This document shows positions 1-17,626 of a stretch of 64,000 nt of DNA, piece after piece. Under the pieces are notes generated by a model. It ran no database searches. It was given only the letters and a program-made list of their open reading frames with translations, and was not told the DNA's origin. Source of the DNA: Parcubacteria group bacterium (GTDB lineage Bacteria > Patescibacteriota > Minisyncoccia > Phycocordibacterales > Phycocordibacteraceae); the NCBI GenBank assembly GCA_028286605.1, contig JAQBRE010000007.1, positions 44,537 to 108,536 of the forward strand, read 5' to 3'. Position 1 is the first letter of the stretch. Every line of letters starts with the position of its first letter. Made by a program: the position numbers and the translations under genes.

Positions 1-3000
1 TCTGACTACACGGGATACGCATACATCGGCGGAACGACCACACGCATCACGAACATACAGAATTACTTCAGCACCACCGGCGGTGTAACGAAGCAGATGC
101 TTGATGAGTCGATCGATGCAGCGACGCTGAGCTTGAGCGGAAACAGCAGTGGAGGCGGCGGCACGACGGTAATCACGGGCGGAGGAGGATTCAGTGGCGG
201 CGCGCTAAGCGCAACGACCGGCGACTTTTCGAGCGACGTGAACGTAGACGGAAACTTCACACTTGCAGGAACGCTCGCGAGCGCGGGTGAGATCAGTGCG
301 CCATTCTTTACTGCCACATCGCTCGCTGCGACGTCGACACTTCCGAACATCATTTCGAATTCATTCAGTATCGGCGGTGACACGATTACGGATTTCACCG
401 GAACGGGCCTTGCAGTCGTGAATGGAAAACTTACTGCGACAGCAACGACATCGAATGCATTCCAGCAGGGGGGAAATATCTTCGGCACGACTGCGACCCT
501 CGGTACGCAGGATGCGAACCCACTCGCATTCATCACGAACAACATCGCACGCATGACGATTGATGCAGCAGGCAACGTTACGGTCGGCACGACGACATCT
601 GCATCACTGCTTACGATCGGCGGTGATACGCGCGGCGATACGTTCACGGCAGTCGGCACAGGCACCTCGACGCTTCCGCGTCTTGCAACGAGCGCGCTCG
701 CGCTCGGCAACGATTACGTGACGGGCTTCACCGGCAACGGTCTTGCGGTCGTCGGCGGCGTGCTCGGCCTCGCCGGCAGCAACAATTATTTCTCGACGAC
801 CTCGTCTGACTTCTGGCTGGGTACGAAGAGCACGAGCGATCTTGCGGAGGGTTCCAAGCTGTACTTCACGAATGCGCGCGCAGACGCGCGCATCAATGCG
901 ACCACTACCATCGGTACGCTCACTTCCGCGCCTAACCTCGGTACGCTTTCAACGACGCTCACGGGCATCGTGAAGGCAACGAGCGGTGTGCTCTCGAGTG
1001 CGGTTGCCGGAACAGATTACGAGAACCCGCTTGCATTCGTGTATCCATTGCAGCGAACGCTTAATAGCATCAGTCTTGCATTCGGTACTACCACCGCAAA
1101 CTCATGGAGCCAGCTGCAATCCTTCGGCAACATAACTGCAGCGAACGCAACCACTACGACGCTCGATGCTACTACGCTTGGCCTCGGCAATTCATACTTC
1201 ACCTCGCTCCTTGGTAGCGGCCTGCAGAATGTTGGTGGCGTACTCACGCTTGATCGCACGGGTGACTGGACCGGCACATTCGGCGGCCAGATCCCTAGCT
1301 ATTATCTAGATAGTGCGAATCAGACTGGCGTTCTTGCGCAGGCAAACGGCGGCACGGGCATCGGCAGCTTTAATCCAGGCGATATCCTGTATGCCGATAA
1401 CATGGGTACGCTGACGACGCTTCCTGTCGGTTCAACAGGCCAGGTGCTCAAGATACAGGCTGGATTGCCGCAATGGGGCGTTGACGCGACGGTCGGTGCC
1501 GGCGGTTCAGACGGAATCTTCGCGACATCTTCTGGCCTAGTCTATCCACTCGATACAAGCAATACCTTGCTTGTCGGCACGAACGCAACCTCGACGACAA
1601 ACAGTATCTTCGAAGTGCATGGTCAGAGCTACTTCTCATCGAAGCTCAGCATTGCGACTACCACCGCGCCGGTAGCGCTCTCTGTAGGTGGTTCAGGCTA
1701 CTTCACAGGCGGCCTCGGTGTTGGCATTCTTAATACGGTTGCTGGTACATTGCGCACCTCGGGCGCTGCGGACATCGGAGGTAACCTTATCGTGACGGGC
1801 GCAACCACGCTTGCTTCTGCAACCTCCTCTTCGTTCTTCACTTCGAACTTCGGTATCGGCAGCACGTATTTCAGCTCGCTTACCGGCGCAGGACTCCTTG
1901 ATACCGCAGGCGTGTTGACGCTCGACACGACAGGCAACTGGGCGGGTACATTCAATGGCCACGCCAGCTCGTTCTATCTTGATGCGACGAACTTGAATAA
2001 TTTTGGAACGCCGTTCTACACGTTCCTTCACGCAACAACTACCGACGCGCTCGCAGAAGGTGTTTCGCATCTGTACTTCACGGATGCGCGCGCAGATGCG
2101 CGCATAAACGCGACCTCGACCATCGGCACGCTCACTTCCGCGCCGAACCTCGGAACAGTATCGACGTCGTTGAACGGTTTGCTTAAGGCAACGAGCGGCG
2201 TGCTCTCTGTTGCTTCTGCGGGGACAGACTTCCAGGCGCCGATAACTGCAAGCTACCCGGTACTCTTCTCTGGAAATAATGTTTCGCTCGCATTCAGTAC
2301 GACCACTACGAATAGCTGGTCATCGCTTCAGACATTCGGCGCAGGCTTCGTTTCGCAGGCTTCCTCGACGGTTGCTGGTCCGCTTACGGTCTCGGGTGCC
2401 TTCACGATTCCAAGTGTCACGAATGCATTGCTTTCATCGAATGGAAGCGGAGTCGTAGGGGCAACGACGATCGGAAACGGCCTTGCGTTCAGTGCAAATA
2501 CGCTTTCCGTCTCAACATCGTCGCTTGCGTCCGGTTTCTTCAAGCAGAGCGGAAATGCATTCGGCACTACGGCAGTACTCGGTACTACCGATAGTAATGC
2601 GCTTACGTTCATAACCAGCAACACAGAGCGCGCACGATTCGATACCTCCGGTAATTTCGGCATCGGCACCAGCTCGCCCTCGCAGCTTCTTTCGGTGCAG
2701 GGAAGCGGGTTGTTCTCTGGAAACATTTCTGCCGCGAATGTAACGGCAACGGGCTCGCTCGCTGTTGTAGGAGTAACTAACACCGGCAATGAGCAGATCA
2801 CGGGCGGCCTCGGTGTCGGTGTCGTAAACACGACGGCCGGTACGATCGTTACAACCGGCGCGATCACTACCGGCTCTCAGTTCATCGGTCTTGCGAGCGA
2901 TGGCGTCTCCGCACCATCCTTCACCTGGGCTACCGACATCACGACCGGTATCTATCATGCTGCCGGCAACACCATCGGCTTCACTACTGCTGGTGTCGGA

Positions 3001-6000
3001 CGTGCGGTCATCGACGGCAACGGTAATCTCGGCATCGGCAGCACTTCGCCTGCAGCGAAGCTTTCCGTTGAAGGAAACGCGCTCATTCACGGCACGGCAA
3101 CCATCGACGGCTTGGGAAGCGGCCTCGTGAAATCTACGAATGGCTTGCTTGGGCTCGCGGTTGCGGGTACTGATTACGCGGCACCCTTCACCGCAACGTA
3201 TCCGATCCTGTTCTCCGCGAATAATCTTTCGCTCGCATTCGGCACGACCACCGCGAACTCATGGAGCCAGCTCCAGCAGTTCAATGGAGCTGCGTCGTCG
3301 ACGCAGCTCACTGTTACGGGCAACACTTATCTTGCGACGAACGCAGGCAGCGTTGGTATCGGAACTTCCTCGCCGTTCACGACACTTGGTGTTGCGGGCA
3401 CGGTCTTCGCAAGTGGAAACATAACGACGACAGGAACGCTCACTGCGACTGCGCTTGGTACGCATTTCGCCGTTGCTTCGAATAACGGCACGCTTACGGC
3501 GCCGAATGCGTTCGTCGACACGTTCCTTAATGATGTCTCTCAACAATCTGTCGTGACAGGATTTTTTGGAATAAACACAAGTACGGGAGGATTTTATCGA
3601 ACGCTTACCGGCACTGCCGGTCAGATAACGGTTGCGAATGGTAGCGGGGCGGGAGGAAATCCAACATTCTCGCTTCCAACGGCAATTACAGGGGTGAACA
3701 GCATCACCGCAGCAGCAAGCACGAACCTTACCCTCGCGTCGGGAGGTTCGAGTGCTACGAGCGTACTTCTTACTCCTAACGGGGGTGGGGTCGGTATCGG
3801 TACCACCTCGCCCTCGCAGCTTCTTTCGGTGCAGGGCAACGGCCTTTTCTCCGGAAACATCGCCGTTGCAAATATCACGGCGACAGGAACTCTTGCTACG
3901 GCTGGTATCACTGATTCTGGAAACGCGCAGATAACCGGAGGGCTCGGTGTCGGAACAGTAAATACTACGGCCGGTACGATCGTTACAACCGGCGCCATCA
4001 CCACCGGCTCTCAGTTCATCGGTCTCGCCTCAGACGCTGTAAATACGCCATCCTTTACCTGGGCTGGCGACCTTACGACCGGCATCTACCACGCTGCGGG
4101 CAACACCATCGGCTTCACCACTTCAGGCGTTGAGCGCGCACGCATCGATGGCAACGGATTCCTCGGCCTTGGTTCGACCACGCCATCCACACGCCTTTCC
4201 GTGGAGGGCAACGCGCTCATTCACGGCACGGTTACGGTTGATGGGCTCGGTTCAGGATTGGTTAAGTCTACGAATGGAACGCTTGGGCTCGCGGTCGCGG
4301 GTACTGACTATGAAAATCCGTTGACATTCAATGCACCGCTTTCACGTACTGTGAATGCAATATCGATATCACAGGCAACTGTATCTACGAACGGATATCT
4401 TGCCTCTGCAGATTTCAATCTCTTTAATAATAAAGTTTCTTCCACTTCACTTTCGGGTGCTTCGGTAATCTCCTATACCTCGGGTACAGGGGTCATAACC
4501 ACTACGGGCGGTACATTCGGAGGTGGGAATTATGTTTTCCCTGCGAACACTTCGGTTGCGGGTAATCTTATAGCAAATACCATTCAACGTGTATTAAATA
4601 CAAGCACACAGAATATTGGCACCACCTCAACGGTAGTATTAGGTGCAGGAGGCACAACGAATATCGTCGGAGGTAATGCTTCGTTTTCAGGTGCAGGCGG
4701 CAACGTAACGCTTACGGGAGGCACCGGAATTGCTGCAGGAGGAAATATTGTTATCAATGCGGGGACTGGCGCATCAACTGGCAGCATCCTTCTTGGAAGC
4801 ACGGCTGGGTTCGTGGGTATCGCCACCTCCACGCCTGGTTCGCTTCTTTCCATCGGAGGCGTCGCAAACTTCACCGCAGCGACCTCGACCTTATATGGTA
4901 GCGGGGGAATCAATCTGAGCGCGGGTTGTTTCGCGATCAACGGCGCATGCGTCGGCGGTAATACGCTTTCGTTCTCCTACCCGCTTACGCTTAGCGGCAC
5001 GAATGTGTCGCTCGCATTCGGCACTACCACGGCGAACACTTGGAGCGCACTCCAGACATTCAACGGCGGCGTGAGCGCATCAACGATCATTACTTCGGGC
5101 GCAATCACCACCGGCTCTCAGTTCATCGGCCTCGCTTCAGACGGCGCCTCTGCACCATCCTTCACCTGGGCCGGTGATCTCACGACGGGTATCTATCATG
5201 CCGCCGGTAATACTATCGGCTTCACGACGAGCGGCGTTGAGCGCGCACGCATCGATGGCAACGGATTCCTCGGCCTTGGTTCCACCACGCCATCCACACG
5301 CCTTTCCGTTGAAGGGAATGCGCTCATTCACGGCACGGCAACCATCGACGGCTTGGGAAGCGGCCTCGTGAAATCTACGAATGGCTTGCTTGGGCTCGCG
5401 GTTGCCGGTACCGATTACCTTGCTCCTGGTTCACTTTCTGCAACGTATCCAATTCTTTATTCGGGAAATAACTTCTCACTTGCATTCGGCACGACCACCG
5501 CGAACTCATGGAGCGCACTTCAGACATTCAACGGCGGTGCTTCAACGACGCAGCTCACTTCAACCGGCAGTACCTATCTTGCAACGACGGGTGGCAATGT
5601 AGGTGTCGGAACGGCAGCGCCAGCTTTCAAACTTGATGTTGCAGGACCGATAAATACGGATATATTCTCGGGTTACTACCAGGGTGGTAAGTTGTTGGCT
5701 TACGCGTCTTCTACGAACGACGATACGATCTTCGGTCTTGGTTCAGGCGGACAAAATGCCACCACAAGCGCAGCGATCAAATCGCTAACGGCATTCGGCT
5801 TCAATGCGTTGGCGGCTAATACCACAGGTAACGTTAACAACGCGTTCGGAGCAAATGCTCTCGCGGCAAACACGACAGGCGGAGGGAACAACGCGTTCGG
5901 AGCAAATACGCTCACGGTGAATATCTCAGGCAGCCTCAACGACGCGTTCGGAAACGGTGTCCTTATCCGTAACACAACAGGTTCTGGTAACAATGCTATT

Positions 6001-9000
6001 GGCAGCGGCGTTCTCTCCAACAACACGACTGGTTCTAATAATAATGCCATCGGCAGTCTTACTCTCGTAGGTAATACCACTGGTTCTAATAATAATGCCA
6101 TCGGCAATCTGGCCCTCAACGGCAACACCGGCAACAGCAACAGCGCTCTTGGCGATCAAGCAGGGTCTGTTACTACCGCCGGCAGCCAGAACCTCTTCCT
6201 CGGCGCACAGTCGAACACGATAGGAGCTGGATATATCAGCACCGGCTCCAACAACATCGGCATCGGCTACAACACGCTCTTCCCGAGCGCAACAGCAAGC
6301 AACCAGCTGAACATAGGTAACTTCATATACGGTACGATTGCCGCGACTTCGAGCGCAAGCACTTTCAGCGCGCCGGGTACCGGCCTCCTCGGTATCGGTT
6401 CCTCGACGCCAGGCTCGCTCCTTTCTATCGGCAACACGAACGGCATCAACTTCTCGACAGCGACTTCAACGTTCTCTTCAACGGGAGGTATCAACCTCAC
6501 GAACGGTTGTTACGCAGTAAACGGTGTCTGTGTCGGAACGAACGCAGGAACTGTAACTTCCGTTGACGCATCCGGCGGCACCACCGGCCTCACGTTCAGC
6601 GGCGGCCCTGTTACTACAAGCGGAACACTCGCGCTCGCAGGAACGCTCGTTGTTGCGAACGGTGGTACAGGAAGCACGACCCTTTCAGGTCTCTTGAAAG
6701 GAAACGGAACAGGATCACTCCTTACTGCGATTGCAGGGACCGATTACCTTGCTCCTGGTTCACTTTCTGCAACGTATCCAATTCTTTATTCGGGAAATAA
6801 CTTCTCACTTGCATTCGGTACCACGACTGCAAACTCATGGAGCCAGCTTCAGACGTTCACCTCAGGGTTTGTTTCTCAGGCATCGTCGACAATAACAGGT
6901 GTCCTTAACCTGGGTAACAATGTGAACTTTAACGAAGCAGGTACCACGACGCTTAAGACGCCTGATCAATCGAGCGGCAATATAGGATCGATCTTAATCT
7001 CAACAGGCGCGGTTAGTGGTGTTGCAAACCCGGGGAATATCACGATTATGCCAGGAAACTCGCCTGGCTCTGGGGGTAATGTCCTTATTAAGGGCGGTTC
7101 CGCAGGATTCGGGACGCCTGGAAACGTAACAATACAGCCAGGGATAGGTATTTCGGCTGGATACGCATTACTGGCATCTAACGGAGGCTTAGTAGGTATT
7201 GGTGCAACCACAACTCCTTCGCAGCTTCTTTCGGTGCAGGGCAATGGCCTCTTCTCCGGAAACATCAGTGCGGCGAACCTTACCGCAACAGGTACCGTTA
7301 CAACGGCAAACCTTACACTCGCAGCGCTTAACGGTCCGCTACAAGCGATCAACGGTGTCGTCTCTGCAACGACTTCTATTGGCGTTGTGTATGGCGGTAC
7401 GGGCTCAACGACGCTCACCGGCCTACTGAAGGGAAATGGCACAGGATCACTGCTCTCTGCTGTTGCCGGCACCGACTATCAGGCACCTCTTACGTTCGTG
7501 TACCCGCTTCTCAATAGTGCGAATACTATTAGCCTTGATTTTGGTACAACGACAGCGAATACATGGAGCGGCCTTCAGACCTTCGGTGCCGGTTTCGTTT
7601 CGCAAGCATCATCGACTGTTGCTGGCAACTTCACGGCTACTGGCTTTATCAGTACAAGTGGTACGACTGGCGGCTATCAGATTGACAATCAGCTCTTTGC
7701 GTACGGATCGACGACGAGCGGCGCGGTCGTCCTTGGGTTTGGCGCGGGAGGAGACGCCCTCACCACAGGTACTAGCCCGAACGTTGCTATAGGAAATAAT
7801 GCGCTGCATATCAATAGCGGAGGCACCTCGAACGTCGCCATCGGCTATCAGGCTATGCTTGTTAATCAGACAGGTTCAAGCAATACCGCTATCGGTTCGC
7901 AGGCACTGATCTTTAACCAGACAGGTTCAAGCAATACTGCTATCGGTCAGCAGGCGCTCAACTCTAATACGGTAGGCAGCAACAACGTCGGCATAGGAGC
8001 AAATGCTCTTCAAAACAATACGACAGCTACGAATACGGTCGCGATCGGCGTGTTCGCAGCTGGAGGTTCGGCAGCCTATACAAACCAAGGCGGAACGTAT
8101 GTTGGTTATTCGTCCGGATTCAGCGCGCATAGTTCCTCGGACTACAATTCGTTCTTCGGATATCAGTCTGGCGCGCAGGACACTACCGGAAACGACAACA
8201 TTTTCATTGGCGCACAGCCTAACTTCAGCGGCGCTGGGTATGTGACCACGGGCGCGAACGATATCGGCCTCGGTTTCAATACGCGCTTCCCAAGTGCAAC
8301 GGCAAGCAACCAGCTGAACATCGGTAACTTTATCTATGGAACACTGCCTGCCACCACGACGGCAAGCACCTTCAGCGTACCGACGGCAGGGCATCTCGGT
8401 ATCGGTTCCTCCTCTCCGTATGCAAAGCTTTCGGTCCATGCAAATAATGGGTCGACTGACACGACGCTCTTCTCGATCGGATCTTCCACCGCAAGCTTGA
8501 CGACGACACTCTTGAGCGTTAGCAACACCGGTGTCATCACGTCGAATGCTGCCGCAACCTCGACGTTCACGAACGGTATCGCTCTCACGGGTGGTTGCGT
8601 GAGCGTGAATGGCGCATGTATCGGTGTTGGTTCGGCCGGTACGGTAACCAGCGTTGACGCAGTTGGCGGCACCACCGGCCTCACGTTCAGTGGCGGCCCC
8701 ATTACTTCAAGCGGCGTTCTCACGCTTGCCGGCACCCTTGGTGTTGCGAACGGCGGCACAGGCGCAGTTACACTCACCGGCCTCGTGAAGGGAAACGGTA
8801 CCGGCGCATTCACCGCAGCAGTTGCCGGTACGGACTACCAGGCACCGCTCGCGTTCACGTATCCACTCGTGAATACGGCGAATACGATCTCGCTCGCATT
8901 CGGTACCACGACTGCGAACACGTGGAGCCAGTTGCAGCAGTTCAACGGCGGTGCTTCAACGACGCAGCTCACTGTTACGGGCAGCACCTATCTTGCAACG

Positions 9001-12000
9001 ACTGGAGGGAACGTCGGTGTCGGAACGGCAGCACCAGCATTCAAGCTCGATGTTGCAGGACCAATCAATACGAATATATTCTCGGGTTACTATCAGGGCG
9101 GCCAGCTGCTTGCCTATGCGTCTTCCACGAACGGTGCTACGATCTTCGGCCTTCAGGCAGGCGGACAGAACGCCACCACAAGCGCATCGGCCATCAGCTT
9201 AACGGCAATTGGATTCAAGGCATTGTCCGCAAACACCACCGGTTTCGCCAACACTGGAGTAGGTTTCTCCTCCCTCATTTCTAACACCACCGGTTTCGAC
9301 AACACCGCTTTCGGTATCAGCGCACTCGGCGGCACCACTATTGGCAGCAACAACGTGGCGGTTGGTGCCAGCGCACTCTTTGGAAACGTTTCAGGTACCA
9401 ACAACGTTGCTGTTGGTATTAATGCACTTGGTGCGGATATTTCAGCAACTACCACCGTAGCTGTGGGATCCGGCGCTGGGTGGGGATCGGGTAACTACTC
9501 GAATCAGGGCGGTACGTACCTTGGATATCAAGCAGGAACATTCCTTGCAAACGGCTCAGATTACAACACGCTGCTCGGATATCAGTCTGGTTCGCAGGTT
9601 ACTTCCGGATACGGAAACATCTTGGTGGGACCATCGGTTTCTAGTAACAACCTCACGACAGGTTCAGGCAACATAGGTATCGGATATAACCTTTCTTTCC
9701 CTGCAGCTTCTACGAATAATTATCTCAACATCGGCAGCCTGATCTTCGGCACGCTACCAGCGACGACCACCTCACTGACGGCACCAGTTTCAGGTCTGCT
9801 CGGCATCGGTACCACTTCGCCGTACGCGAAACTCAGCGTCCAAAGCAATAACGGCGACACCGCAACAACGCTCTTCGCGATCGGTTCATCCACCGCATCG
9901 CTTAACAGCACACTGTTCAGTGTCAGCAACACCGGTGTGATCACGTCGAATGCTGCAGCAACGTCAACGTTCACGAACGGTATCGCTCTCACGGGCGGCT
10001 GCGTAAGCGTGAACGGTACCTGTCTTGGTACTGGCAGTGGGGGCGTTACTTCCGTAAACGCAGTCGGCGGCACCACCGGCCTCACGTTCAGTGGCGGGCC
10101 GATTACAAGCTCGGGCACACTCACTCTTGCCGGCACGCTCGGCGTTGCGAATGGCGGCACGGGTTCAACCACGCTCACCGGCCTACTGAAGGGAAATGGC
10201 ACAGGATCACTCCTCACTGCCGTTGCCGGTACGGATTATCTCGCGCCAGGCTCGCTCTCTGCGACGTATCCGATTCTCTACAGTGCTAATAATTTCTCAT
10301 TGGCCTTCGGTACGACGACCGCTAATACATGGTCTTCGCTTCAAACGTTCACTTCAGGACTTATCTCGCAGGCATCCTCAACATTCAGCGGTTCATTGAA
10401 TGTTACGGGCTCTTCGTACTTCGGCGCGAATGTAGGTATCGGTACCACGACTGCAGCACAGCTGCTTACGCTTTCAGCTGCTGATACAAGTACATCGCTG
10501 ATTACGGCAGCACTTGCTTCTGAATCGATCATCAATAGCGATACTACGAACAACAATACTGCGGACCTCGTTTTCAAGACTGCTGATACCGCTGGCGCTA
10601 CCGTTGTTGGTACGAAACTTGCAACAGTCTTCACGTCGCACACGCCGAGCGGCGTCTCAGCTGATCTTGCATTCATAACCCGAAACGCAGGCACGCTCTC
10701 TGAGAAGCTGCGTCTCACGGCTGCCGGTAATCTCGGTGTCGGCACTACCACGCCTTCACAGGCACTCTCTGTTCAGGGTAATGGTCTCTTCTCTGGAAAC
10801 ATAAGTTCAGCGAACGTTACCGCTACCGGTACTATCACGACACCTAATCTCACGATCGCAGCGCTTAATGGTCCGCTACAGGCAAACAACGGTGTTGTAT
10901 CCGCAACGACTTCAATTGGAGTGCAGTACGGCGGTACGGGAGCAATCACCCTCACCGGTCTTATAAAGGGAAATGGTACGAGTGCGTTCACCGCAGCAGT
11001 AGCAGGAACGGACTACCAGGCCCCGCTCGCGTTCACGTATCCATTGGTTAATACCACCAACACCATTTCGCTTGCGTTCGGCACGACGACGGCGAACTCA
11101 TGGAACAGTCTCCAGCAATTCAATGGCGGACTGACTGCTTCAACGATCACGACGACAGGCAGTGTCGGTATCGGCACAAGTACTCCTGGTTCACTCCTTT
11201 CTATAGGTACTACGAATGGCATTAACTTCAGTACGGCAACATCAACCTTCAGTTCGACGGGCGGCATCAACCTTACGAATGGATGCTACGCAGTGAACGG
11301 CGTGTGTCTTTCAACGGGCGGCGGTACATTCACCAATACGCTTGCGAATGGCGGTACTGCAACAACTACCTTCTACGCAGGCGGTTTGGTATTTAGCGAC
11401 GGCACGAAGCTTACGCAGGCTTCGGGCTCTGGAGCAAGCATTCTTAGCTGGAACAACACGAACGGATTCCTTGGCATCGGCTCAAGCAGCCCTTCGTATG
11501 CGCTTTCCGTTCAGGGTACCAGCGGCATACGTGTGAAGACCACAACGAACACTGCCGCTGCGCTGGGTATCGAAAACTCACAAGGCACGACAACCCTCCA
11601 GGCCGACACTCTTGATTCAAGCGATTCGATCTTCTCTGTCGCAACCTCTACGGGTAACACGTACTTCTACGTGGGAGCTGGCGGAAACGTAGGTGTCGGC
11701 ACGACCACGCCGCTTTCCGCGCTTGCTATCGGCGGCGCAGGAGGTCTTTCCGTGGGAGCAGACTACAACATCGCAGCGCCAACGAACGGTGCGATCATCG
11801 AAGGCGGGTTAGGTGTCGGCACCACTTCTGTCATGAATAACGACGCGCTTGATGTAAGCGGCGCAGTGTACATCAACGGCACAGGCACCAACCCACTTGC
11901 TCTTTCGGTAGGCGCTACCGCCGCCGCAACCCCGAGCTTCAGCGTAGATCAAAGCGCTGGTATCGGTACGGGTCTCTCCGTAGTAACGAATCTCGTGGGA

Positions 12001-14175
12001 TCAGGAGTTACGCTGCAGGGTCTTTCTAGTGCTGCAAACGAGAACTTTAATATACTCTCGAAGGGAGGCGGTAACATCAAGCTGTTCTCTAACGGAGGTT
12101 CGATTCAGGTTTCAACCGCATTCGGAAGCCAATATACGTTTGCTGCGACTGCTCTTACTATCACCGGCTTCACCGCTGCCGCGAGCGGCAACCACTTCTC
12201 CGTCGTAGGGGGTATCGACACCGCCATCACCGCTGCTACAGAATCGTCTGATGTGTATTTCAACCTTGGTCAGACGCGCACCAACTTATCCAATACTGCT
12301 GTTTCAACTTTCCGAGATTTCCGTATAACGGGCTCGACGCACGCATTCGCTACTGCTGGCGGCGTGATAAACAATGCCGCAGGATTCTCGGTTGACTTGC
12401 CAGATAGCGCCGGCACTAACGCAACGATAAGCACCTCATCAGCTATCTATGTTCCTGGAGGTGCAGTCACGGGTACGGTATCAACAAGTACTGCCGCAAA
12501 CCTTCTTGCCTCGACAGGAGCAACGAATAACTTCGCGCTTACGACGAACGGTCGAGTAGTCCACAGCAGCCTCACTGCCGGTGCTGGCGCAGGATCCGTC
12601 TGTATGAGCGCTACCGGTGAATTGCTCTTCGACAGCGGGGCGAACTGTATCGTGTCCACACCGCTCGCGAAGCACAATATTCATGGCATCTCAGATGCGC
12701 AGGCAGATGAAGTGCTAAGTCTCGACGCTATCCAGTACGACTACAACGACGGAAGCGGTACTCGTTACGGTTTCAATGCATTGCAGGCCGCGAGCATCGA
12801 TCCAACACTCGTGGTTTATGCAGCGTCTGACATACAGGTAGTTGGTGCTGATGGAAATCCTGTAACCGTAGCGAAGGGCCAGCCATATACCTTCGACTAT
12901 GGTCGCTACACGGGCCTTCTTACTGCTGAAGTACAGAAGCAGCAGAAGCAGATAAGCCTGCTTGCAAGCACGACGCTTGCAGCGGCGGCATCCGCAGGCG
13001 CTCCTGCGCCCGTTGCAGCAACCACTCTTTCTGCGAATTCAATCTACACGCAGAGCCTCACTATTAAGGGCAATGCATTCGCGACATCGTTCGTCGCACC
13101 GGCAACGCCGATTACGTTCACGATCGGTTCTACAACGGGCACGCTGCCAAATGAAGTGCTTGCATCAGATGGCAGTGGCGTAGACCTCTATAAGGCAGCG
13201 ACGTATGCAATCACCGGCGTGCAAGCGCTCCAGGCGCAGACGGGCGTGCTCGCGAGCCGTCTTGATGCGGTCGAACTGCGCGTGACGATGCTCGAAGCTG
13301 AAGCGTCGAGTACGCAAGCAGTAGGCAGCGGCACGCTCTCGCTCGCCGGCTTCGAGGATCTGCTCGGCCAGATCGGCGTTATCGTGAAGGACGGCATCGC
13401 GCACTTCACATCGCTCGCCTTCACGAACCTGATATCAGCACCAGCCGCAGACGGTACGTCGGCAGTAGCAACGAGCACGATAGCGATGGGTGATACGCAG
13501 GCAGTAGTGGTAAACAATCTCGCGCATCCGACTTCGGAAATCTTCGTTACCATCACCTCTCCGCTTAATGGAAGCTGGTACATCAGCCAGAAGGGCGAGG
13601 GAAGCTTCACGATCAATCTTTCGAGTCCGCAGACCGCAGACGTGACCTTCGACTACTTCATCGTGCAGACGGAAAAGGGGGCAACGCAGGTCGCGAGCGT
13701 AGCGAGCGCCCCGGTGCAGACGCCTGCGCAGTATCCTGATCAGACACCAGTTGATCCGAGTGCATCAACGACACCTGCAGCATCTACGAATGCACCGACC
13801 ATAACGCTTACCGGCAGTGCCGCAATTGATATCGCGCAGGGTGCTCCATGGACTGACCCGGGTGCAATCGCGCAGGACGCAGCAGGGAAAGATCTTACCG
13901 CGCAGATCGCGGTAACAGGCAGCGTTGATACGAATACTGCAGGCCTGTACACGCTTAACTACTCGGTTGTTGATTCTGCCGGAGCGAGCGCAGGCGTATC
14001 ACGTATCGTGCATGTTTCGGCACCGGTAGTATCAAGCCCACCTGCTGAAACCGCGCCGCCCGCAGACACCTCTGCTCCGGTGCAGACACCTGCATCTGAT
14101 CCAGCTACTCCCGCAGCGTCTGCGCCAAGCCCGGTAACAGCTGACGCGGGCGCTACTCCGTCCACAGGCGGCTAA
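1..14175 (+). CDS. Giant repetitive surface/fibre protein (5' end outside window; >4,700 aa) with C-terminal peptidase-S74-like intramolecular chaperone domain, Ig-like (DUF5011-type) domain and Pro/Ala/Ser-rich tail
   Basis: The reading frame of the ORF at 97..14175 is open back to nt 1. The upstream translation SDYTGYAYIGGTTTRITNIQNYFSTTGGVTKQ has the same G/T/S/A-rich composition, so the gene starts upstream of the window. About 11 recurrences of the motif AGTDY.AP..F.YP.....ISLAFGTTTAN(S/T)WS.LQ(T/Q)F. Five C..NG.C loops. Near the C-terminus, STPLAKHNIHGISDAQADEVLSLDAIQYDYNDGSGTRYGFNALQ...GQPYTFDYGRYTGLL fits the S-x4-K / Y.Y.DGS signature of tail-fibre intramolecular chaperones. This is followed by ITLTGSAAIDIAQGAPWTDPGAIAQDAAGKDLTAQIAVTGSVDTNTAGLYTLNYSVVDSAG (DUF5011-like Ig fold). 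Confidence 0.8.
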   Translation, partial: SDYTGYAYIGGTTTRITNIQNYFSTTGGVTKQMLDESIDAATLSLSGNSSGGGGTTVITGGGGFSGGALSATTGDFSSDVNVDGNFTLAGTLASAGEISAPFFTATSLAATSTLPNIISNSFSIGGDTITDFTGTGLAVVNGKLTATATTSNAFQQGGNIFGTTATLGTQDANPLAFITNNIARMTIDAAGNVTVGTTTSASLLTIGGDTRGDTFTAVGTGTSTLPRLATSALALGNDYVTGFTGNGLAVVGGVLGLAGSNNYFSTTSSDFWLGTKSTSDLAEGSKLYFTNARADARINATTTIGTLTSAPNLGTLSTTLTGIVKATSGVLSSAVAGTDYENPLAFVYPLQRTLNSISLAFGTTTANSWSQLQSFGNITAANATTTTLDATTLGLGNSYFTSLLGSGLQNVGGVLTLDRTGDWTGTFGGQIPSYYLDSANQTGVLAQANGGTGIGSFNPGDILYADNMGTLTTLPVGSTGQVLKIQAGLPQWGVDATVGAGGSDGIFATSSGLVYPLDTSNTLLVGTNATSTTNSIFEVHGQSYFSSKLSIATTTAPVALSVGGSGYFTGGLGVGILNTVAGTLRTSGAADIGGNLIVTGATTLASATSSSFFTSNFGIGSTYFSSLTGAGLLDTAGVLTLDTTGNWAGTFNGHASSFYLDATNLNNFGTPFYTFLHATTTDALAEGVSHLYFTDARADARINATSTIGTLTSAPNLGTVSTSLNGLLKATSGVLSVASAGTDFQAPITASYPVLFSGNNVSLAFSTTTTNSWSSLQTFGAGFVSQASSTVAGPLTVSGAFTIPSVTNALLSSNGSGVVGATTIGNGLAFSANTLSVSTSSLASGFFKQSGNAFGTTAVLGTTDSNALTFITSNTERARFDTSGNFGIGTSSPSQLLSVQGSGLFSGNISAANVTATGSLAVVGVTNTGNEQITGGLGVGVVNTTAGTIVTTGAITTGSQFIGLASDGVSAPSFTWATDITTGIYHAAGNTIGFTTAGVGRAVIDGNGNLGIGSTSPAAKLSVEGNALIHGTATIDGLGSGLVKSTNGLLGLAVAGTDYAAPFTATYPILFSANNLSLAFGTTTANSWSQLQQFNGAASSTQLTVTGNTYLATNAGSVGIGTSSPFTTLGVAGTVFASGNITTTGTLTATALGTHFAVASNNGTLTAPNAFVDTFLNDVSQQSVVTGFFGINTSTGGFYRTLTGTAGQITVANGSGAGGNPTFSLPTAITGVNSITAAASTNLTLASGGSSATSVLLTPNGGGVGIGTTSPSQLLSVQGNGLFSGNIAVANITATGTLATAGITDSGNAQITGGLGVGTVNTTAGTIVTTGAITTGSQFIGLASDAVNTPSFTWAGDLTTGIYHAAGNTIGFTTSGVERARIDGNGFLGLGSTTPSTRLSVEGNALIHGTVTVDGLGSGLVKSTNGTLGLAVAGTDYENPLTFNAPLSRTVNAISISQATVSTNGYLASADFNLFNNKVSSTSLSGASVISYTSGTGVITTTGGTFGGGNYVFPANTSVAGNLIANTIQRVLNTSTQNIGTTSTVVLGAGGTTNIVGGNASFSGAGGNVTLTGGTGIAAGGNIVINAGTGASTGSILLGSTAGFVGIATSTPGSLLSIGGVANFTAATSTLYGSGGINLSAGCFAINGACVGGNTLSFSYPLTLSGTNVSLAFGTTTANTWSALQTFNGGVSASTIITSGAITTGSQFIGLASDGASAPSFTWAGDLTTGIYHAAGNTIGFTTSGVERARIDGNGFLGLGSTTPSTRLSVEGNALIHGTATIDGLGSGLVKSTNGLLGLAVAGTDYLAPGSLSATYPILYSGNNFSLAFGTTTANSWSALQTFNGGASTTQLTSTGSTYLATTGGNVGVGTAAPAFKLDVAGPINTDIFSGYYQGGKLLAYASSTNDDTIFGLGSGGQNATTSAAIKSLTAFGFNALAANTTGNVNNAFGANALAANTTGGGNNAFGANTLTVNISGSLNDAFGNGVLIRNTTGSGNNAIGSGVLSNNTTGSNNNAIGSLTLVGNTTGSNNNAIGNLALNGNTGNSNSALGDQAGSVTTAGSQNLFLGAQSNTIGAGYISTGSNNIGIGYNTLFPSATASNQLNIGNFIYGTIAATSSASTFSAPGTGLLGIGSSTPGSLLSIGNTNGINFSTATSTFSSTGGINLTNGCYAVNGVCVGTNAGTVTSVDASGGTTGLTFSGGPVTTSGTLALAGTLVVANGGTGSTTLSGLLKGNGTGSLLTAIAGTDYLAPGSLSATYPILYSGNNFSLAFGTTTANSWSQLQTFTSGFVSQASSTITGVLNLGNNVNFNEAGTTTLKTPDQSSGNIGSILISTGAVSGVANPGNITIMPGNSPGSGGNVLIKGGSAGFGTPGNVTIQPGIGISAGYALLASNGGLVGIGATTTPSQLLSVQGNGLFSGNISAANLTATGTVTTANLTLAALNGPLQAINGVVSATTSIGVVYGGTGSTTLTGLLKGNGTGSLLSAVAGTDYQAPLTFVYPLLNSANTISLDFGTTTANTWSGLQTFGAGFVSQASSTVAGNFTATGFISTSGTTGGYQIDNQLFAYGSTTSGAVVLGFGAGGDALTTGTSPNVAIGNNALHINSGGTSNVAIGYQAMLVNQTGSSNTAIGSQALIFNQTGSSNTAIGQQALNSNTVGSNNVGIGANALQNNTTATNTVAIGVFAAGGSAAYTNQGGTYVGYSSGFSAHSSSDYNSFFGYQSGAQDTTGNDNIFIGAQPNFSGAGYVTTGANDIGLGFNTRFPSATASNQLNIGNFIYGTLPATTTASTFSVPTAGHLGIGSSSPYAKLSVHANNGSTDTTLFSIGSSTASLTTTLLSVSNTGVITSNAAATSTFTNGIALTGGCVSVNGACIGVGSAGTVTSVDAVGGTTGLTFSGGPITSSGVLTLAGTLGVANGGTGAVTLTGLVKGNGTGAFTAAVAGTDYQAPLAFTYPLVNTANTISLAFGTTTANTWSQLQQFNGGASTTQLTVTGSTYLATTGGNVGVGTAAPAFKLDVAGPINTNIFSGYYQGGQLLAYASSTNGATIFGLQAGGQNATTSASAISLTAIGFKALSANTTGFANTGVGFSSLISNTTGFDNTAFGISALGGTTIGSNNVAVGASALFGNVSGTNNVAVGINALGADISATTTVAVGSGAGWGSGNYSNQGGTYLGYQAGTFLANGSDYNTLLGYQSGSQVTSGYGNILVGPSVSSNNLTTGSGNIGIGYNLSFPAASTNNYLNIGSLIFGTLPATTTSLTAPVSGLLGIGTTSPYAKLSVQSNNGDTATTLFAIGSSTASLNSTLFSVSNTGVITSNAAATSTFTNGIALTGGCVSVNGTCLGTGSGGVTSVNAVGGTTGLTFSGGPITSSGTLTLAGTLGVANGGTGSTTLTGLLKGNGTGSLLTAVAGTDYLAPGSLSATYPILYSANNFSLAFGTTTANTWSSLQTFTSGLISQASSTFSGSLNVTGSSYFGANVGIGTTTAAQLLTLSAADTSTSLITAALASESIINSDTTNNNTADLVFKTADTAGATVVGTKLATVFTSHTPSGVSADLAFITRNAGTLSEKLRLTAAGNLGVGTTTPSQALSVQGNGLFSGNISSANVTATGTITTPNLTIAALNGPLQANNGVVSATTSIGVQYGGTGAITLTGLIKGNGTSAFTAAVAGTDYQAPLAFTYPLVNTTNTISLAFGTTTANSWNSLQQFNGGLTASTITTTGSVGIGTSTPGSLLSIGTTNGINFSTATSTFSSTGGINLTNGCYAVNGVCLSTGGGTFTNTLANGGTATTTFYAGGLVFSDGTKLTQASGSGASILSWNNTNGFLGIGSSSPSYALSVQGTSGIRVKTTTNTAAALGIENSQGTTTLQADTLDSSDSIFSVATSTGNTYFYVGAGGNVGVGTTTPLSALAIGGAGGLSVGADYNIAAPTNGAIIEGGLGVGTTSVMNNDALDVSGAVYINGTGTNPLALSVGATAAATPSFSVDQSAGIGTGLSVVTNLVGSGVTLQGLSSAANENFNILSKGGGNIKLFSNGGSIQVSTAFGSQYTFAATALTITGFTAAASGNHFSVVGGIDTAITAATESSDVYFNLGQTRTNLSNTAVSTFRDFRITGSTHAFATAGGVINNAAGFSVDLPDSAGTNATISTSSAIYVPGGAVTGTVSTSTAANLLASTGATNNFALTTNGRVVHSSLTAGAGAGSVCMSATGELLFDSGANCIVSTPLAKHNIHGISDAQADEVLSLDAIQYDYNDGSGTRYGFNALQAASIDPTLVVYAASDIQVVGADGNPVTVAKGQPYTFDYGRYTGLLTAEVQKQQKQISLLASTTLAAAASAGAPAPVAATTLSANSIYTQSLTIKGNAFATSFVAPATPITFTIGSTTGTLPNEVLASDGSGVDLYKAATYAITGVQALQAQTGVLASRLDAVELRVTMLEAEASSTQAVGSGTLSLAGFEDLLGQIGVIVKDGIAHFTSLAFTNLISAPAADGTSAVATSTIAMGDTQAVVVNNLAHPTSEIFVTITSPLNGSWYISQKGEGSFTINLSSPQTADVTFDYFIVQTEKGATQVASVASAPVQTPAQYPDQTPVDPSASTTPAASTNAPTITLTGSAAIDIAQGAPWTDPGAIAQDAAGKDLTAQIAVTGSVDTNTAGLYTLNYSVVDSAGASAGVSRIVHVSAPVVSSPPAETAPPADTSAPVQTPASDPATPAASAPSPVTADAGATPSTGG
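5411..6843 (+). repeat. Intragenic near-identical nucleotide repeats in the giant gene. Example: 5411..5514 and 6740..6843 are about 94% identical. Other families recur at about 2840-3110, 3970-4240 and 5090-5360, and at 8560-8790 and 9950-10180
   Basis: Direct comparison of sequence lines. The coding text ccgattaccttgctcctggttcactttctgcaacgtatccaattctttattcgggaaataacttctcacttgcattcgg occurs twice. Confidence 0.8.
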
Positions 14176-14195: not shown

Positions 14196-15290
14196 ATGCA
14201 TATGAAATTCAGTCCTGTTAAAACATTTCTATTTCCACTAGCGATTTTCGTCTTTTCGTTCTCTTTGGCGCCGCACGCATTCGCGAGCCAGATATTCCTT
14301 ACGGCTAATCCGGGTACGGGTAACCAAACGTTTACAGTTCCTGCAGACTACAGAGCGGCAGGTTCAACCATTCAATGTATTGGTTCTGGGGGTACTGGTG
14401 GCACGAGCACAGCAAACACCACGAGTGCAGGAGGCGGTAGTGGCGGTGCATATGCAAAGATATTCAATCTGTCACTCACTCCTGGCGCGACCGTAACGTA
14501 TGCTGTTGGTGGCTCTGCAACGACCACCGGCGGCACTATAGCGAACGAAACATACTTCAATGGAACCGCTTCTTCGACGGCTTCGCTTTCATGCGCATTC
14601 GGGAAAGCTGCAGCAGGAGTTAGTGCAGGAACAGCTACTCTGTCTGCCAATTCTAAAGGAACGATTATTTTTAATGGAAATAGTGGCGGCGCAGGAACAA
14701 GCGGGGCGGTAGGCGGTGGCGGTGGCGGTGGCGGTTCTGCAGGCCCCCATGGTCTTGGAAGAGTTGCTCTTATTAGTACCGCTACTCGCGGAGGTAGCGG
14801 CGGTGGCGGTTCGGATGGTTTGCAAGCAACTAACGGCGCTCAACCAGCAACCGGCCAAGGTGGTTCGGGAGGAAACGGCTATTCTGGTACCTTAGGCGGT
14901 GCTGGCGGCTTTGCCACGGGTGCTGCTGCAGCAGGTACAAATGGTGCTGGCGGTGGCGGTGGCCAGGCTTTTACAGGTACGAATGGCGGTACCGGTGGTG
15001 CCGGAGGAAATGATACGGCGTTCGATGCGACACATGGTGCTGGCGGTGGCGGTGGCGGTGGCGGTGATGCAACCATAAGTGATCCTGGAGGCGCAGGCGG
15101 AACGTATGGCGGTGGCGGTGGCGGTGGCGGTAACAGTGCATCTACTAATGGCGTCGGCGGCGTCGGCGGTCAGGGCATTATCGTTATTACGTACACGCCC
15201 GCTCAAACGTTAACAAACTTAGTATCTTCAATGCTCCATGTGCTTGGCGGGAAAGTGCGTATCATGGGTGGAAAAGTTATCGTCCAGTAA
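14196..15290 (+). CDS. Secreted glycine-rich protein (Sec signal peptide; poly-Gly runs; C-terminal GQGIIVITYTP)
   Basis: N-terminus MHMKFSPVKTFLFPLAIFVFSFSLAPHAFA-SQ is a signal peptide with an AxA site. The body is more than 40% Gly, with GGGGGGGG runs encoded by (GGC GGT)4 tracts at 14712..14737, 15042..15065 and 15120..15143. It lies 21 nt downstream of the giant gene. Confidence 0.65.
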   Translation: MHMKFSPVKTFLFPLAIFVFSFSLAPHAFASQIFLTANPGTGNQTFTVPADYRAAGSTIQCIGSGGTGGTSTANTTSAGGGSGGAYAKIFNLSLTPGATVTYAVGGSATTTGGTIANETYFNGTASSTASLSCAFGKAAAGVSAGTATLSANSKGTIIFNGNSGGAGTSGAVGGGGGGGGSAGPHGLGRVALISTATRGGSGGGGSDGLQATNGAQPATGQGGSGGNGYSGTLGGAGGFATGAAAAGTNGAGGGGGQAFTGTNGGTGGAGGNDTAFDATHGAGGGGGGGGDATISDPGGAGGTYGGGGGGGGNSASTNGVGGVGGQGIIVITYTPAQTLTNLVSSMLHVLGGKVRIMGGKVIVQ

Positions 15291-15302: not shown

Positions 15303-16316
15303 ATGAAAAAAGTACGTGTTGCTATTAATGGATTCGGCCGCATCGGCCGCGCATTCGTTCGCCAAAGCTTTGATCGTGAGGAAATCGAATTAGTTGCGGT
15401 GAACGATCTCGGTTCGCTCGAGAATCTTGCGTATTTGCTTAAGTACGACACGGTATACAAGCGCGCACCGTTTCCGGTTGAAGCGAAAGACGGGAAACTC
15501 ATGATCAATGGGAAGGAGGTTGCATTCTGCTCAGAGAAAGATCCGGCGATGTTGCCATGGAAGGCGCTCGAGGTCGACGTCGTCATCGAGTCGACCGGCT
15601 TCTTCACGGATTATGAAAAGGCGAATGCGCATATTACCGCAGGCGCACGTCGCGTGGTTATTTCTGCGCCGGTGAAAGATGAGAACCCGCTCGGCGCGAC
15701 GGTGCTTATGGGTCTTGATGAAAGCAAGTTCGGCAGCGTTGCGATAACAAGTAACGCATCATGCACCACGAACTCCGCGTCACCGGTGATCGCAATCCTG
15801 GACGAAGCCATCGGTATCGAGAAGGCGGTCCTTTCTACGACGCACGCATACACGGCGAGCCAGAGCATCGTTGATGGTCCAGCGAAGAAAGATATGAAGG
15901 AGGGCCGCGCAGCGGCCCAGAACATCGTGCCTACTTCCACCGGCGCTGCCATTGCGGTTACTAAGGCGTACACATCGCTTGAAGGGAAGTTCGACGGCAT
16001 CTCGCTCCGCGTTCCTGTTCCTGCAGGTTCAATCGCAGACATCACCTTCATCGCAAAACGCGCAACAACTACGGACGAAGTGAATGACATCCTGCGCAAG
16101 GCCGCAACGCTTCCGCGCTGGGCTGGCATCTTCAGTGCAACTGACGAAGACCTCGTTTCAAGCGATATCATCGGCGAGCGGTTCGCGAGCATCGCAGACC
16201 TCGGCAGTACGCGCGTCGTAGATGGCAACCTCGTTAAGGTGCTCGCCTGGTATGATAACGAGGCAGGCTACACGCACACGCTCGTAGAGCACGCTATCAA
16301 GGCAGGTAACGCATAG
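15303..16316 (+). CDS. gap: Glyceraldehyde-3-phosphate dehydrogenase
   Basis: VAINGFGRIGR NAD-binding motif and SNASCTTNS catalytic Cys motif. Length 337 aa. Confidence 0.95.
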   Translation: MKKVRVAINGFGRIGRAFVRQSFDREEIELVAVNDLGSLENLAYLLKYDTVYKRAPFPVEAKDGKLMINGKEVAFCSEKDPAMLPWKALEVDVVIESTGFFTDYEKANAHITAGARRVVISAPVKDENPLGATVLMGLDESKFGSVAITSNASCTTNSASPVIAILDEAIGIEKAVLSTTHAYTASQSIVDGPAKKDMKEGRAAAQNIVPTSTGAAIAVTKAYTSLEGKFDGISLRVPVPAGSIADITFIAKRATTTDEVNDILRKAATLPRWAGIFSATDEDLVSSDIIGERFASIADLGSTRVVDGNLVKVLAWYDNEAGYTHTLVEHAIKAGNA

Positions 16317-16320
16317 CGCT

Positions 16321-16803
16321 ATGAAAATATTCATCGCTGGCGATCATGCAGGATTCCGTTTGAAATCCATGCTGCTTGAGCAGCTTCCGTTGTTCGGCCA
16401 TGAACTGGAAGATATGGGTCCGTTCGAGCTCGACCCTGAAGATGATTATCCTGATTTTGTTACGCCGCTCGCGAAAGCGGTAGCAGAGAATCCTGATTCT
16501 TTCGGTATCATCTGCGCACGCAGCGGGCAGGGCGAAGCGATGTGTGCGAACCGGGTGCCGGGCGTACGCGCTGCGGTCTTCTATGGAAAGATGGTCGTTA
16601 CGGATGCGCTCACGAGCGAGGGTTCGCATACGGATGACGGTCTCGATTCAGTACGATTGCCTCGTAAGCACAATAACGCGAATGTGCTTTCCATCGGTGC
16701 AGGATTCGTCTCGCACACAGATGCGGAAGAAGCGGTACAGACATTCCTTTCGACAGAATTCTCCGGTGATGCACGACATGTACGCAGGCTCGCGAAATTC
16801 TAG
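16321..16803 (+). CDS. rpiB: Ribose-5-phosphate isomerase B (RpiB/LacAB family)
   Basis: MKIFIAGDHAGFRLK ... CARSGQGEAMCANRVPGVRAA matches the RpiB family pattern. Length 160 aa. Confidence 0.85.
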   Translation: MKIFIAGDHAGFRLKSMLLEQLPLFGHELEDMGPFELDPEDDYPDFVTPLAKAVAENPDSFGIICARSGQGEAMCANRVPGVRAAVFYGKMVVTDALTSEGSHTDDGLDSVRLPRKHNNANVLSIGAGFVSHTDAEEAVQTFLSTEFSGDARHVRRLAKF

Positions 16804-16818
16804 AGTATACTTTTACGC

Positions 16819-17535
16819 ATGGGCGTCATCGTACCTGCCATTCTCCCCACATCACGCAACGACTTAGACGAAAAACTCCTTCGTCTGCATGGTCTTGTCG
16901 ACACTGTACAGGTAGATGTCGTAGACGGCCGTTTCGTTACACCAGCATCCTGGCCCTATAAAGATGCGAACGCTGACGTACGGGAACCGAGTGGCGACAC
17001 CTTTCCGTATCTGGGGCAGCTCTCATTCGAAGTGGATCTCATGGTTGAGGAACCAGAGCACGTTATTCGTCACTGGATCGAAGCAGGAGCAACGCGCATC
17101 ATCATTCATGCCGAGACGACGCGCATGCTGCCGAAACTCATGAACGATCTCTCGACGACGTACGGCCACGATAAGGATTTCACGCCGGAACTGCTTTCAT
17201 TCGGACTTGCTATAAACGTAAGCACGGAACTTTCGCTTATCGAACCCTTCCTGCATCAGTGTGATTTCGTACAGTTCATGGGTATCGCGAAGATAGGGAA
17301 GCAGGGAGAACCGTTTGATAAGAGCGTGCTGCCGAAGATATCGGCGTTCCGTAAGAAATATCCCGCAATGCCGCTGCAAGTGGATGGCGGCGTCTCGCTT
17401 GCCACTGCCCCCGGCCTGCTGCAGGCCGGCGTTACGCGCCTCGTCGTCGGCTCCGACCTCTGGAACGCGCCCGACCTCACCGCAGAACTCAAGAAACTTC
17501 AAGGACTCGTGCAAACATACGGCCTCTACGCATAG
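16819..17535 (+). CDS. rpe: Ribulose-phosphate 3-epimerase-like
   Basis: DVVDGRFV, EVDLMVEEPE, IIIHAE and QVDGGVS line up with the Rpe motifs DVMDNHYVPN, DVHLMV, ITFHPE and EVDGGV. Confidence 0.7.
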   Translation: MGVIVPAILPTSRNDLDEKLLRLHGLVDTVQVDVVDGRFVTPASWPYKDANADVREPSGDTFPYLGQLSFEVDLMVEEPEHVIRHWIEAGATRIIIHAETTRMLPKLMNDLSTTYGHDKDFTPELLSFGLAINVSTELSLIEPFLHQCDFVQFMGIAKIGKQGEPFDKSVLPKISAFRKKYPAMPLQVDGGVSLATAPGLLQAGVTRLVVGSDLWNAPDLTAELKKLQGLVQTYGLYA

Positions 17536-17626
17536 TAATCAGCGCAAGCAAGAAAAACTGAAGAAAAGATAAAATATTCCTGAAGACCCTGCTAGGTGCT
17601 TCGAAGTCGAGTGATATAATGAACGT

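Follow-up and report, generated by a model that had tools for sequence, protein, structure and literature searches.

A predicted self-cleaving chaperone and a conserved downstream cassette at the C-terminal end of a giant Patescibacteria protein

In a stretch of 64,000 nucleotides (nt) from a Parcubacteria group bacterium (positions 44,537 to 108,536 of contig JAQBRE010000007.1, assembly GCA_028286605.1; hereafter the window), one giant gene encodes a protein whose C-terminal end joins a chaperone of the Peptidase_S74 type to a conserved cassette of further domains. The reading favoured here, to which a probability of about 0.5 is given, is that this end is the cassette through which a trimeric giant surface protein resembling a phage tail fibre matures, and that it would be shed by cleavage at Ser4187. 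The identities and order of the domains, the conservation of the catalytic dyad and the pattern across the family of relatives are observed directly and are set out first. Amino acid (aa) residues are numbered from the ATG at window nt 97, and the numbering of the full-length protein is obtained by adding 524.

The chaperone is marked by the motif 'STPLAKHNI', in which Ser4187 (nt 12655-12657) and Lys4192 (nt 12670-12672) form a Ser-x4-Lys dyad as the predicted nucleophile and predicted general base, respectively, of a Peptidase_S74 intramolecular chaperone. An initial annotation of this DNA had pointed to such a cleavage Ser, although the position that it gave, about nt 12665, was 10 nt off, and its count of about 500 more residues agrees with the 506 that run from Ser4187 through the end of the protein. 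The dyad spacing of +5 is known from endoNF (S911/K916) and MYRF (S587/K592), where the two pairs are mutually equivalent, and in MYRF the replacement of S587 or K592 by Ala abolishes cleavage, whereas R590A merely reduces it (PMC8326128). Both residues are invariant in a close alignment of six sequences (A1, comprising the query and the Parcubacteria and Paceibacterota proteins P0001-P0005, which were obtained by protein search; 6/6) as well as in a second alignment, A2. Family-wide, Ser and Lys are present in 94 of 97 S74 domains and the other three domains are fragments; i.e. all 94 informative domains keep the dyad, and the inactive chaperone that the initial annotation had considered finds no support. 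A profile of the S74 region, built from the six sequences, matches solved S74 domains over profile positions 15-116 of 122, with E-values of 6.6e-15 for a phage tail fibre (8jov), 1.1e-10 for the S16 long tail fibre (6f45), 1.2e-8 for MYRF (7dc3), 3.4e-5 for T5 pb1 (8hqz) and 2.1e-4 for the GA-1 neck appendage (3gud). Moreover, the Y-D-Y of the query ('IQYDYND') aligns with the 'hYrYk' columns of MYRF, which hold Y615/Y617, and its G-F-x-A ('YGFNALQA') aligns with the 'GviAqEv' columns of MYRF, the G, A, P and V being invariant in A2. On the basis of the dyad, these motifs and the full-length profile similarity, the query chaperone is assigned to the S74/ICA (intramolecular chaperone autoprocessing) family. 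The matches to solved S74 domains run through LTAEVQKQQKQISLL (aa 4275-4289), a segment that is predicted to be helical and that falls within the helix at residues 127-157 of a 551-aa model, a monomer model with low values of the predicted local distance difference test (pLDDT). What had been listed in the initial annotation as a separate, Q/K-rich coiled coil is therefore the terminal helix of S74 itself, and such a coiled coil as an element of its own after the chaperone is ruled out by the S74 matches that extend through it.

Two side observations concern the chaperone and its immediate surroundings. A 17-aa insertion, SDIQVVGADGNPVTVAK, lies inside the S74 domain (window 12853-12903, aa 4253-4269); among the aligned relatives only P0004 has the same one, and canonical S74 domains are without it. 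Ahead of the dyad, C4169 and C4184 (window 12601-12654) flank the final stretch before Ser4187 and form a motif that consists of 'VC...', approximately 14 residues, then 'C', two residues and Ser. This pair, which may serve as a disulphide staple at the fibre tip, occurs in four of the six A1 sequences, i.e. in P0002, P0004 and P0005 besides the query, and not in P0001 or P0003.

Between the chaperone and an immunoglobulin (Ig)-like domain lies a conserved module of ~215 aa (aa 4314-4527), which is the largest piece of the region and was omitted from the parts list of the initial annotation. The first third of the module is the relic of a second S74 domain, of which two parts remain: the strand ahead of the site, 'GNAFATSFV', and the C-terminal half, LPNEVLASDGSGVDLYKAATYAITGVQALQ..., which includes a long helix at aa 4364-4405 (pLDDT ~83). 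An S74 profile match overlaps the position of the relic in 41 relatives, 39 of which retain Ser and Lys ('VNTSTRxAKTDIS'). When a hidden Markov model was built from 39 of the S74 domains at this position, those aligning from the dyad onward, it matched the query segment TLPNEVLASDGSGVDLYKAATYAITGVQALQAQTGVLASRLDAVELRVT with an E-value of 2.2e-14 at profile positions 83-131; positions 35-82, containing the dyad and the beta 'donut', are missing. An explicit alignment likewise reveals a deletion of ~37 residues that corresponds to the catalytic half, with Ala4336 at the Ser-equivalent position and no Lys. A direct profile-profile comparison between the module and S74 gives a probability of only 34%, on the last helix, and the homology of the two is taken as established because relatives retain an intact second S74 at the relic position. 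A vestigial second S74 is present in 83 of the best 150 relatives of the module, the query included, and each of the two S74 units of the query has a long predicted helix.

Modelled with AlphaFold2 on an alignment of 27 sequences (mean pLDDT 75), the module comprises a long helix, a short helix with a hairpin, and a beta-sandwich at aa 4457-4523 with a pLDDT of 92-98, the latter two making up the 'knob' domain. Among structures in the PDB, Foldseek matches the knob to the C-terminal beta-sandwiches of tailspikes and depolymerases and to the R2 pyocin fibre, including Pam1 (7eea, E 4.8e-3), R2 pyocin (6cl6), Sf6 (2vbk), K64-1 S2-4 (9k4a) and K1 lyase (7w1c), the superpositions covering about 70-90 columns at a root-mean-square deviation of 1.4-3.4 A. 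Among the predicted viral structures of BFVD there are 20 matches at E<=1e-3 (best 5.2e-6), several of which carry the name 'K1 capsule-specific polysaccharide lyase C-terminal domain' and several of which also cover the preceding helix. Neither the knob nor the module has a sequence-family match in Pfam, PHROG or NCBIfam, a single sub-threshold coiled-coil match to DUF7310 being all that Pfam returns for the module; as judged from the model, the knob thus resembles tailspike domains at the level of fold only. The last two elements are those that the initial annotation had described as a DUF5011-like Ig domain and a P/A/S/T low-complexity tail, and both are borne out. The Ig-like domain scores 76.6 bits against PF16403 (cut-off 27, E 1.6e-21, model positions 1-71 of 71) and has a pLDDT of 84-90, and a PDB sequence search with the whole C-terminus returned only Ig relatives, among them chitinase 60 (4mb3) and BT_2262 (5fq3). 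The tail, which is predicted to be disordered, contains 13 A, 12 P, 8 S and 7 T, or 40 of its 52 residues.

The module is widespread, as a search with its profile across 1.84 billion representative proteins (clusters at 50% identity) recovered 1147 clusters at E<=1e-3, of which 156 reach E<=1e-30. In the best 150 matches, bar one truncated fragment, it is situated 50-320 residues from the C-terminus of proteins that reach 6467 aa; 118 of the 150 carry one to three PF16403 Ig-like copies behind the module, the C-terminus is a low-complexity, Pro-rich tail in almost all, and none has a convincing C-terminal transmembrane segment. In the comparison with homologues that the initial annotation had proposed, the Ig-like domain and the tail recur after the chaperone. 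That annotation had also called the architecture non-canonical; 403 residues do follow the end of the S74 domain, which is thus not C-terminal, unlike that of the matched phage proteins, and the term holds against the phage paradigm, but the ICA domain of MYRF is internal as well (PMC8326128), and the arrangement is no peculiarity of this gene but the norm across a large family of the Patescibacteria, the 1147 clusters at 50% identity. In a scan of one genome per species, 94 loci were obtained, and among the best 80 all with a named taxon belong to the Patescibacteria, including Parcubacteria, Paceibacterota, Kaiserbacteria, Nomurabacteria, Wolfebacteria, Minisyncoccia and some labelled Saccharibacteria, the rest being labelled only 'bacterium'. 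These data bear on the explanation, very improbable indeed, that the extension is a neighbouring gene fused to the chaperone through an assembly or frame error, or that the whole gene is a prophage tail fibre. The window does come from a metagenome-assembled genome, and the gene has many repeats and domains of phage type; however, the frame is continuous, with no stop, and the order S74-module-Ig-tail recurs in independent assemblies from NCBI, JGI, ENA and Logan, so the extension is not mis-joined, a possibility that the initial annotation had named. Furthermore, the taxon-named loci just mentioned are without exception Patescibacteria, no relative of the module was found in IMG/VR (by pattern and tblastn) or in 50,697 GenBank phage genomes (by tblastn), the S74, module and Ig profiles find no second match elsewhere in the window, and the flanking ORFs (open reading frames) look by eye like housekeeping genes.

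While the query has a single intact S74, multiple S74 domains spaced ~1100 residues apart were seen in one giant protein in the cases of P0065, P0058 and P0079, the S74 matches in P0065 being located at aa 1480-1584, 2645-2755, 3735-3846, 4922-5025 and 5062-5150. Such relatives may be polyproteins that cut themselves into several segments of fibre.

The case for selection on the cut is drawn from the domain that precedes the cassette. In 142 relatives with sufficient upstream sequence, in which S74 was sought within 400 residues, S74 lies upstream of the cassette in 122, Peptidase_G2 takes its place in 17, and neither is found in three; a self-cleaving type of chaperone, whether S74 or G2, is therefore present in 139 of the 142 informative relatives. 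The G2 domain was recognized by its signature, 'ADYAEYF' or 'YDVAENY', with PF11962 scoring 31.7 bits on P0024 (cut-off 25). Across all 150 relatives, a G2-like domain is directly upstream of the cassette in 25 (e.g. P0024, P0047, P0049, P0134 and P0152), and eight relatives apparently have both S74 and G2. That two non-homologous, self-cutting chaperones are interchangeable at one junction argues that the cut itself is under selection, and the decay of the redundant second S74 leads to the same conclusion. A second line of evidence is a break in conservation. In the closest relatives compared (P0010-P0013 and P0001), the fibre is 19-34% identical to that of the query and the S74 domain 12-29%, as against 71-87% for the S74 relic, 70-85% for the knob and 69-90% for the Ig domain. 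This sharp break at the boundary between S74 and the cassette implies that the cassette is generic and independent of the type of fibre, and it suggests recombination at that boundary. By the same comparison of sequences, the S74 domain travels with the fibre, as is exemplified by P0004, a protein of 836 aa with an N-terminal signal peptide, whose S74 is ~68% identical to that of the query in the S74-region alignment and which has no cassette.

For the topology of the protein, the sequence beyond the window was consulted. The giant ORF is open in frame 1 of the + strand from window nt 1 to a stop codon at 14173-14175, and as no stop occurs ahead of the first ATG (nt 97), the gene runs past the window edge and is 5'-truncated. 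All 4724 of its codons are 100% identical to residues 493-5216 of MDB5266126.1 (P0009 among the relatives), a protein of 5216 aa recorded as 'hypothetical protein JWM39_839 [Parcubacteria group bacterium]', and because the match starts only at residue 493, the first 492 residues lie outside the window. The N-terminus of the full protein, beyond the window edge, has an HTH_17 domain (aa 9-58, 30 bits, Pfam cut-off 27) and then a single hydrophobic helix (aa 110-130), which in a hydropathy scan is the only transmembrane-like segment; an N-terminus of HTH_17 plus helix is shared by ~40 of 52 full-length relatives. The topology is thus likely N-in and C-out, which would make the cassette the distal, last-exported end. 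With this topology, a giant surface fibre would begin with a cytoplasmic HTH domain.

Under the favoured reading, the protein would be anchored N-in through its HTH_17 domain and one transmembrane helix, and an ectodomain of ~5,000 residues would be exported unfolded. The S74 domain, the coiled-coil relic of the second S74 and the knob would align three chains in register, with S74 acting as a template for the folding of the upstream fibre; the fold matches of the knob, being C-terminal domains of trimeric tailspikes and of a pyocin fibre, were counted in favour of trimer-type folds, as were the long helices of the two S74 units. Once the trimer had formed, Ser4187 and Lys4192 would cut the Val4186-Ser4187 bond, such that the fibre would remain on the cell and a trimer of 506 residues per chain, consisting of S74, the vestigial S74, the knob, the Ig-like domain and the disordered tail, would be shed from its distal end. 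The part that follows S74 would accordingly represent a generic trimerisation and assembly module reused across the family, and not a random appendage. The initial annotation had envisaged a sizeable secreted fragment; release of a fragment is predicted here too, but 'secreted' overlooks the probable N-terminal transmembrane anchor, and if the helix does anchor the protein, what is shed would be the far end of a fibre that itself stays attached to the cell.

Several points weigh against this reading. Cleavage at Ser4187, trimerisation, shedding and topology are all things that we infer from sequence, the topology on the basis only of sequence beyond the window and a hydropathy scan. By itself, the query scores 18.2 bits (E 0.003) against PF13884, where the gathering cut-off is 22. 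The residues after the Ser are Thr-Pro-Leu-Ala, versus the common Asp-x-Arg-x, and they place a Pro two residues past the nucleophile. The missing Asp and Arg are not disqualifying, because the S74 of the T5 fibre, which reads 'SGIEYK' as aligned here, is likewise without them and yet self-cleaves. The similarity of the knob to solved structures is weak, with a best E-value of 4.8e-3 and a template-modelling (TM) score of ~0.25, a measure that large targets lower. The AlphaFold2 model of the whole 551-aa region, based on six sequences, is poor (pLDDT 46) and was used for secondary structure and disorder only, and all of the structure models are monomers. Lastly, the cassette is the best-conserved part of the protein, which is unexpected for a piece that is discarded, and since such conservation would fit a retained tip or an anchor equally well, two rival explanations stay alive.

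According to the first of these, the knob and the Ig-like domain form an adhesive tip that is retained as the working distal end of the fibre and binds some conserved glycan of the host or of a partner cell, with S74 being only a joint for trimerisation and folding, at which there is either no cut or a non-covalent attachment after the cut. Besides the high conservation of the cassette, this would be in keeping with the resemblance of the knob to the receptor-binding or C-terminal domains of tailspikes and the R2 pyocin fibre, with the presence of PF16403 in surface proteins that act on carbohydrates, chitinase 60 among them, and with the distal location that the C-terminus has if the N-terminus is a membrane anchor. 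Nevertheless, a retained tip is considered unlikely. The dyad is strictly kept in every informative member, and where S74 is absent its place is taken by another self-cleaving domain (G2) and not by a plain trimerisation domain, a substitution that points to selection for cutting. A receptor-binding tip, moreover, usually varies more than the rest of its fibre and is not the most conserved part. In the characterised S74 proteins endoNF, T5 pb1 and MYRF, the two cleavage products come apart, and in the case of MYRF, the N-terminal fragment leaves the endoplasmic reticulum membrane after cleavage (PMC8326128).

The second rival is a hold-and-release tether, in which the last-exported C-termini would be kept at the envelope, be it the wall or an S-layer, by the Ig-like domain and the Pro-rich tail until three chains had assembled, and the S74 cut would then free the distal end, much as MYRF is released from its membrane tether upon trimerisation. 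P0004, which shares the S74 subtype of the query (68%), has a short hydrophobic segment, GFIALLMLYILY, and then 'DKRRKK' where the cassette would stand, an end that may, by analogy with MYRF, tether the part beyond the cleavage site to a membrane; the Pro-rich, low-complexity tails of almost all 150 relatives are likewise compatible with a holding function. However, the hydrophobic segment of P0004 is only ~12-14 residues long and was not called by the hydropathy scan, and the C-terminal region of the query has neither a transmembrane-like segment after aa 4187 in that scan nor a known wall-sorting motif, and no wall-binding domain was recognized there in scans of Pfam, PHROG and NCBIfam. A tether of this type is therefore judged improbable, and shedding of the cassette remains the favoured reading.

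An extension of these ideas, speculative and for the present doubtful, is that the HTH_17-transmembrane unit and the cassette together make up a giant-fibre system specific to the Patescibacteria, in which the cassette does more than assist folding, being either a dedicated signal for assembly or tethering, one that holds the last-exported end at the envelope and is freed by autoproteolysis, or a shed, trimeric, lectin-like product. If that were true, the shed lectin-like trimer would have a role of its own in contact with host cells, and relatives such as P0065, in which four or five S74 domains lie inside the chain, would be self-cutting polyproteins that give rise to several fibres.

Table 1. 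Coordinates in the window of the giant ORF and of the elements at its C-terminal end
Feature	Position (nt)	Strand	Basis or remark
Giant ORF	1..14175	+	Residues 493-5216 of a 5216-aa Parcubacteria protein
Last 20 fibre residues before the predicted cleavage site, aa 4167-4186, SVCMSATGELLFDSGANCIV	12595..12654	+	Alignment A1, direct reading
Peptidase_S74 domain, aa 4187-4289	12655..12963	+	PF13884 sub-threshold, profile matches to solved S74
Ala/Thr/Pro-rich linker, aa 4290-4313	12964..13035	+	Low pLDDT, length varies in A1
Vestigial second S74, aa 4314-4405	13036..13311	+	HMM of relatives' S74, explicit alignment, modelled helix
Beta-sandwich 'knob', aa 4406-4527	13312..13677	+	AlphaFold2 model, Foldseek
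Pro/Thr/Ser/Ala-rich linker, aa 4528-4568	13678..13800	+	Low pLDDT, variable in A1
Ig-like PF16403 (formerly DUF5011), aa 4569-4640	13801..14016	+	Pfam 76.6 bits
Low-complexity Pro/Ala/Ser/Thr tail, aa 4641-4692, end '...ATPSTGG'	14017..14172	+	Composition, predicted disorder

Upstream of the elements in Table 1, the fibre region (window 97-12594) contains recurring motifs, such as GNVGIGTTTPSQLLSVQG, 'CYAVNGVCVG', repeat blocks of 'NTTGxxNxAxGxxAL' and 'AGTDYQAPLTFxYPL...ISLAFGTTTANSWSxLQTF', which suggests several types of repeated module. Downstream, the next gene (14196-15290, +) starts 21 nt past the stop of the giant gene and encodes a protein of 364 aa that has a signal peptide as well as long stretches rich in Gly; as a conserved downstream partner it was rejected, there being one weak tblastn match in 80 loci. 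The ORFs at 15303-19873 (+), read by eye as glyceraldehyde-3-phosphate dehydrogenase, ribose-5-phosphate isomerase B, ribulose-phosphate 3-epimerase and a split transketolase, look like cellular housekeeping rather than a phage context.

The Patescibacteria, or candidate phyla radiation (CPR), are bacteria of ultra-small size, for the most part uncultured, whose way of life is believed to be one of attachment to other cells, and to our knowledge the manner in which they build attachment structures is largely unknown. If the favoured reading is right, giant surface proteins of these organisms reuse the solution by which phages fold trimeric fibres, i.e. a self-cleaving C-terminal chaperone. What is new is a conserved, Patescibacteria-wide cassette for which Pfam, PHROGs and NCBIfam offer no family model and which is kept better than either the chaperone or the fibre. 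The interchange of S74 and G2 at one junction is unusually direct comparative evidence for a selected cut, and the combination of one Ser, one Lys and a product of 506 aa offers a concrete handle on fibre maturation in uncultured organisms. In addition, a domain family of >1000 clusters could be added to domain databases and thereby improve the annotation of giant genes that are now called 'hypothetical'. Within a literature coverage that is incomplete, no description was found of S74 or G2 in giant proteins of the CPR, or of the cassette.

Among known systems, the closest counterparts of the query chaperone are the S74 domains of phages (PF13884), as represented by endoNF, T5 pb1, the GA-1 neck appendage and the S16 fibre, with which it shares the full-length domain, the Ser-x4-Lys dyad, the Y-x-Y and G-F/L-x-A motifs, the terminal helix and a place directly after a long, fibre-like region. 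The phage domains, though, end their chains, spanning residues 335-435 of 439 in 8jov and 89-190 of 204 in 6f45 and coming within ~15 residues of the end in T5 pb1, whereas in the query ~400 residues follow, the gene belongs to a CPR cellular chromosome, the Pfam score is below the cut-off and there is an insertion of 17 aa. Peptidase_G2 (PF11962), known from phi29-type pre-neck appendages, is by its family description a self-cleaving folding chaperone of trimeric spikes, as S74 is, and it occupies the same junction in the 17 relatives without S74; it is unrelated to S74 in sequence and is absent from the query. A likeness of another sort is provided by the ICA domain of MYRF, an internal S74/ICA domain in which Ser/Lys cleavage, dependent upon trimerisation, parts two functional halves, the domain there being cytoplasmic and upstream of a transmembrane domain, so that cleavage frees a transcription factor (PMC8326128). 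In the query, by contrast, the domain would be extracellular and is succeeded by soluble, beta-rich domains with no transmembrane helix, and the HTH is at the far N-terminus, ~4,600 residues from S74 and across the membrane anchor. The C-terminal beta-sandwiches of tailspikes, depolymerases and pyocins are similar in predicted fold to the sandwich of the knob (aa 4457-4523), with no detectable similarity in sequence. In phage tailspikes, the beta-sandwich is the true C-terminus of the mature protein and is not downstream of a cleavage site, whereas the knob of the query lies downstream of the predicted one. Finally, the Ig-like domain of the query is an ordinary member of PF16403, and it is its context, after a self-cleaving chaperone, that is unusual.

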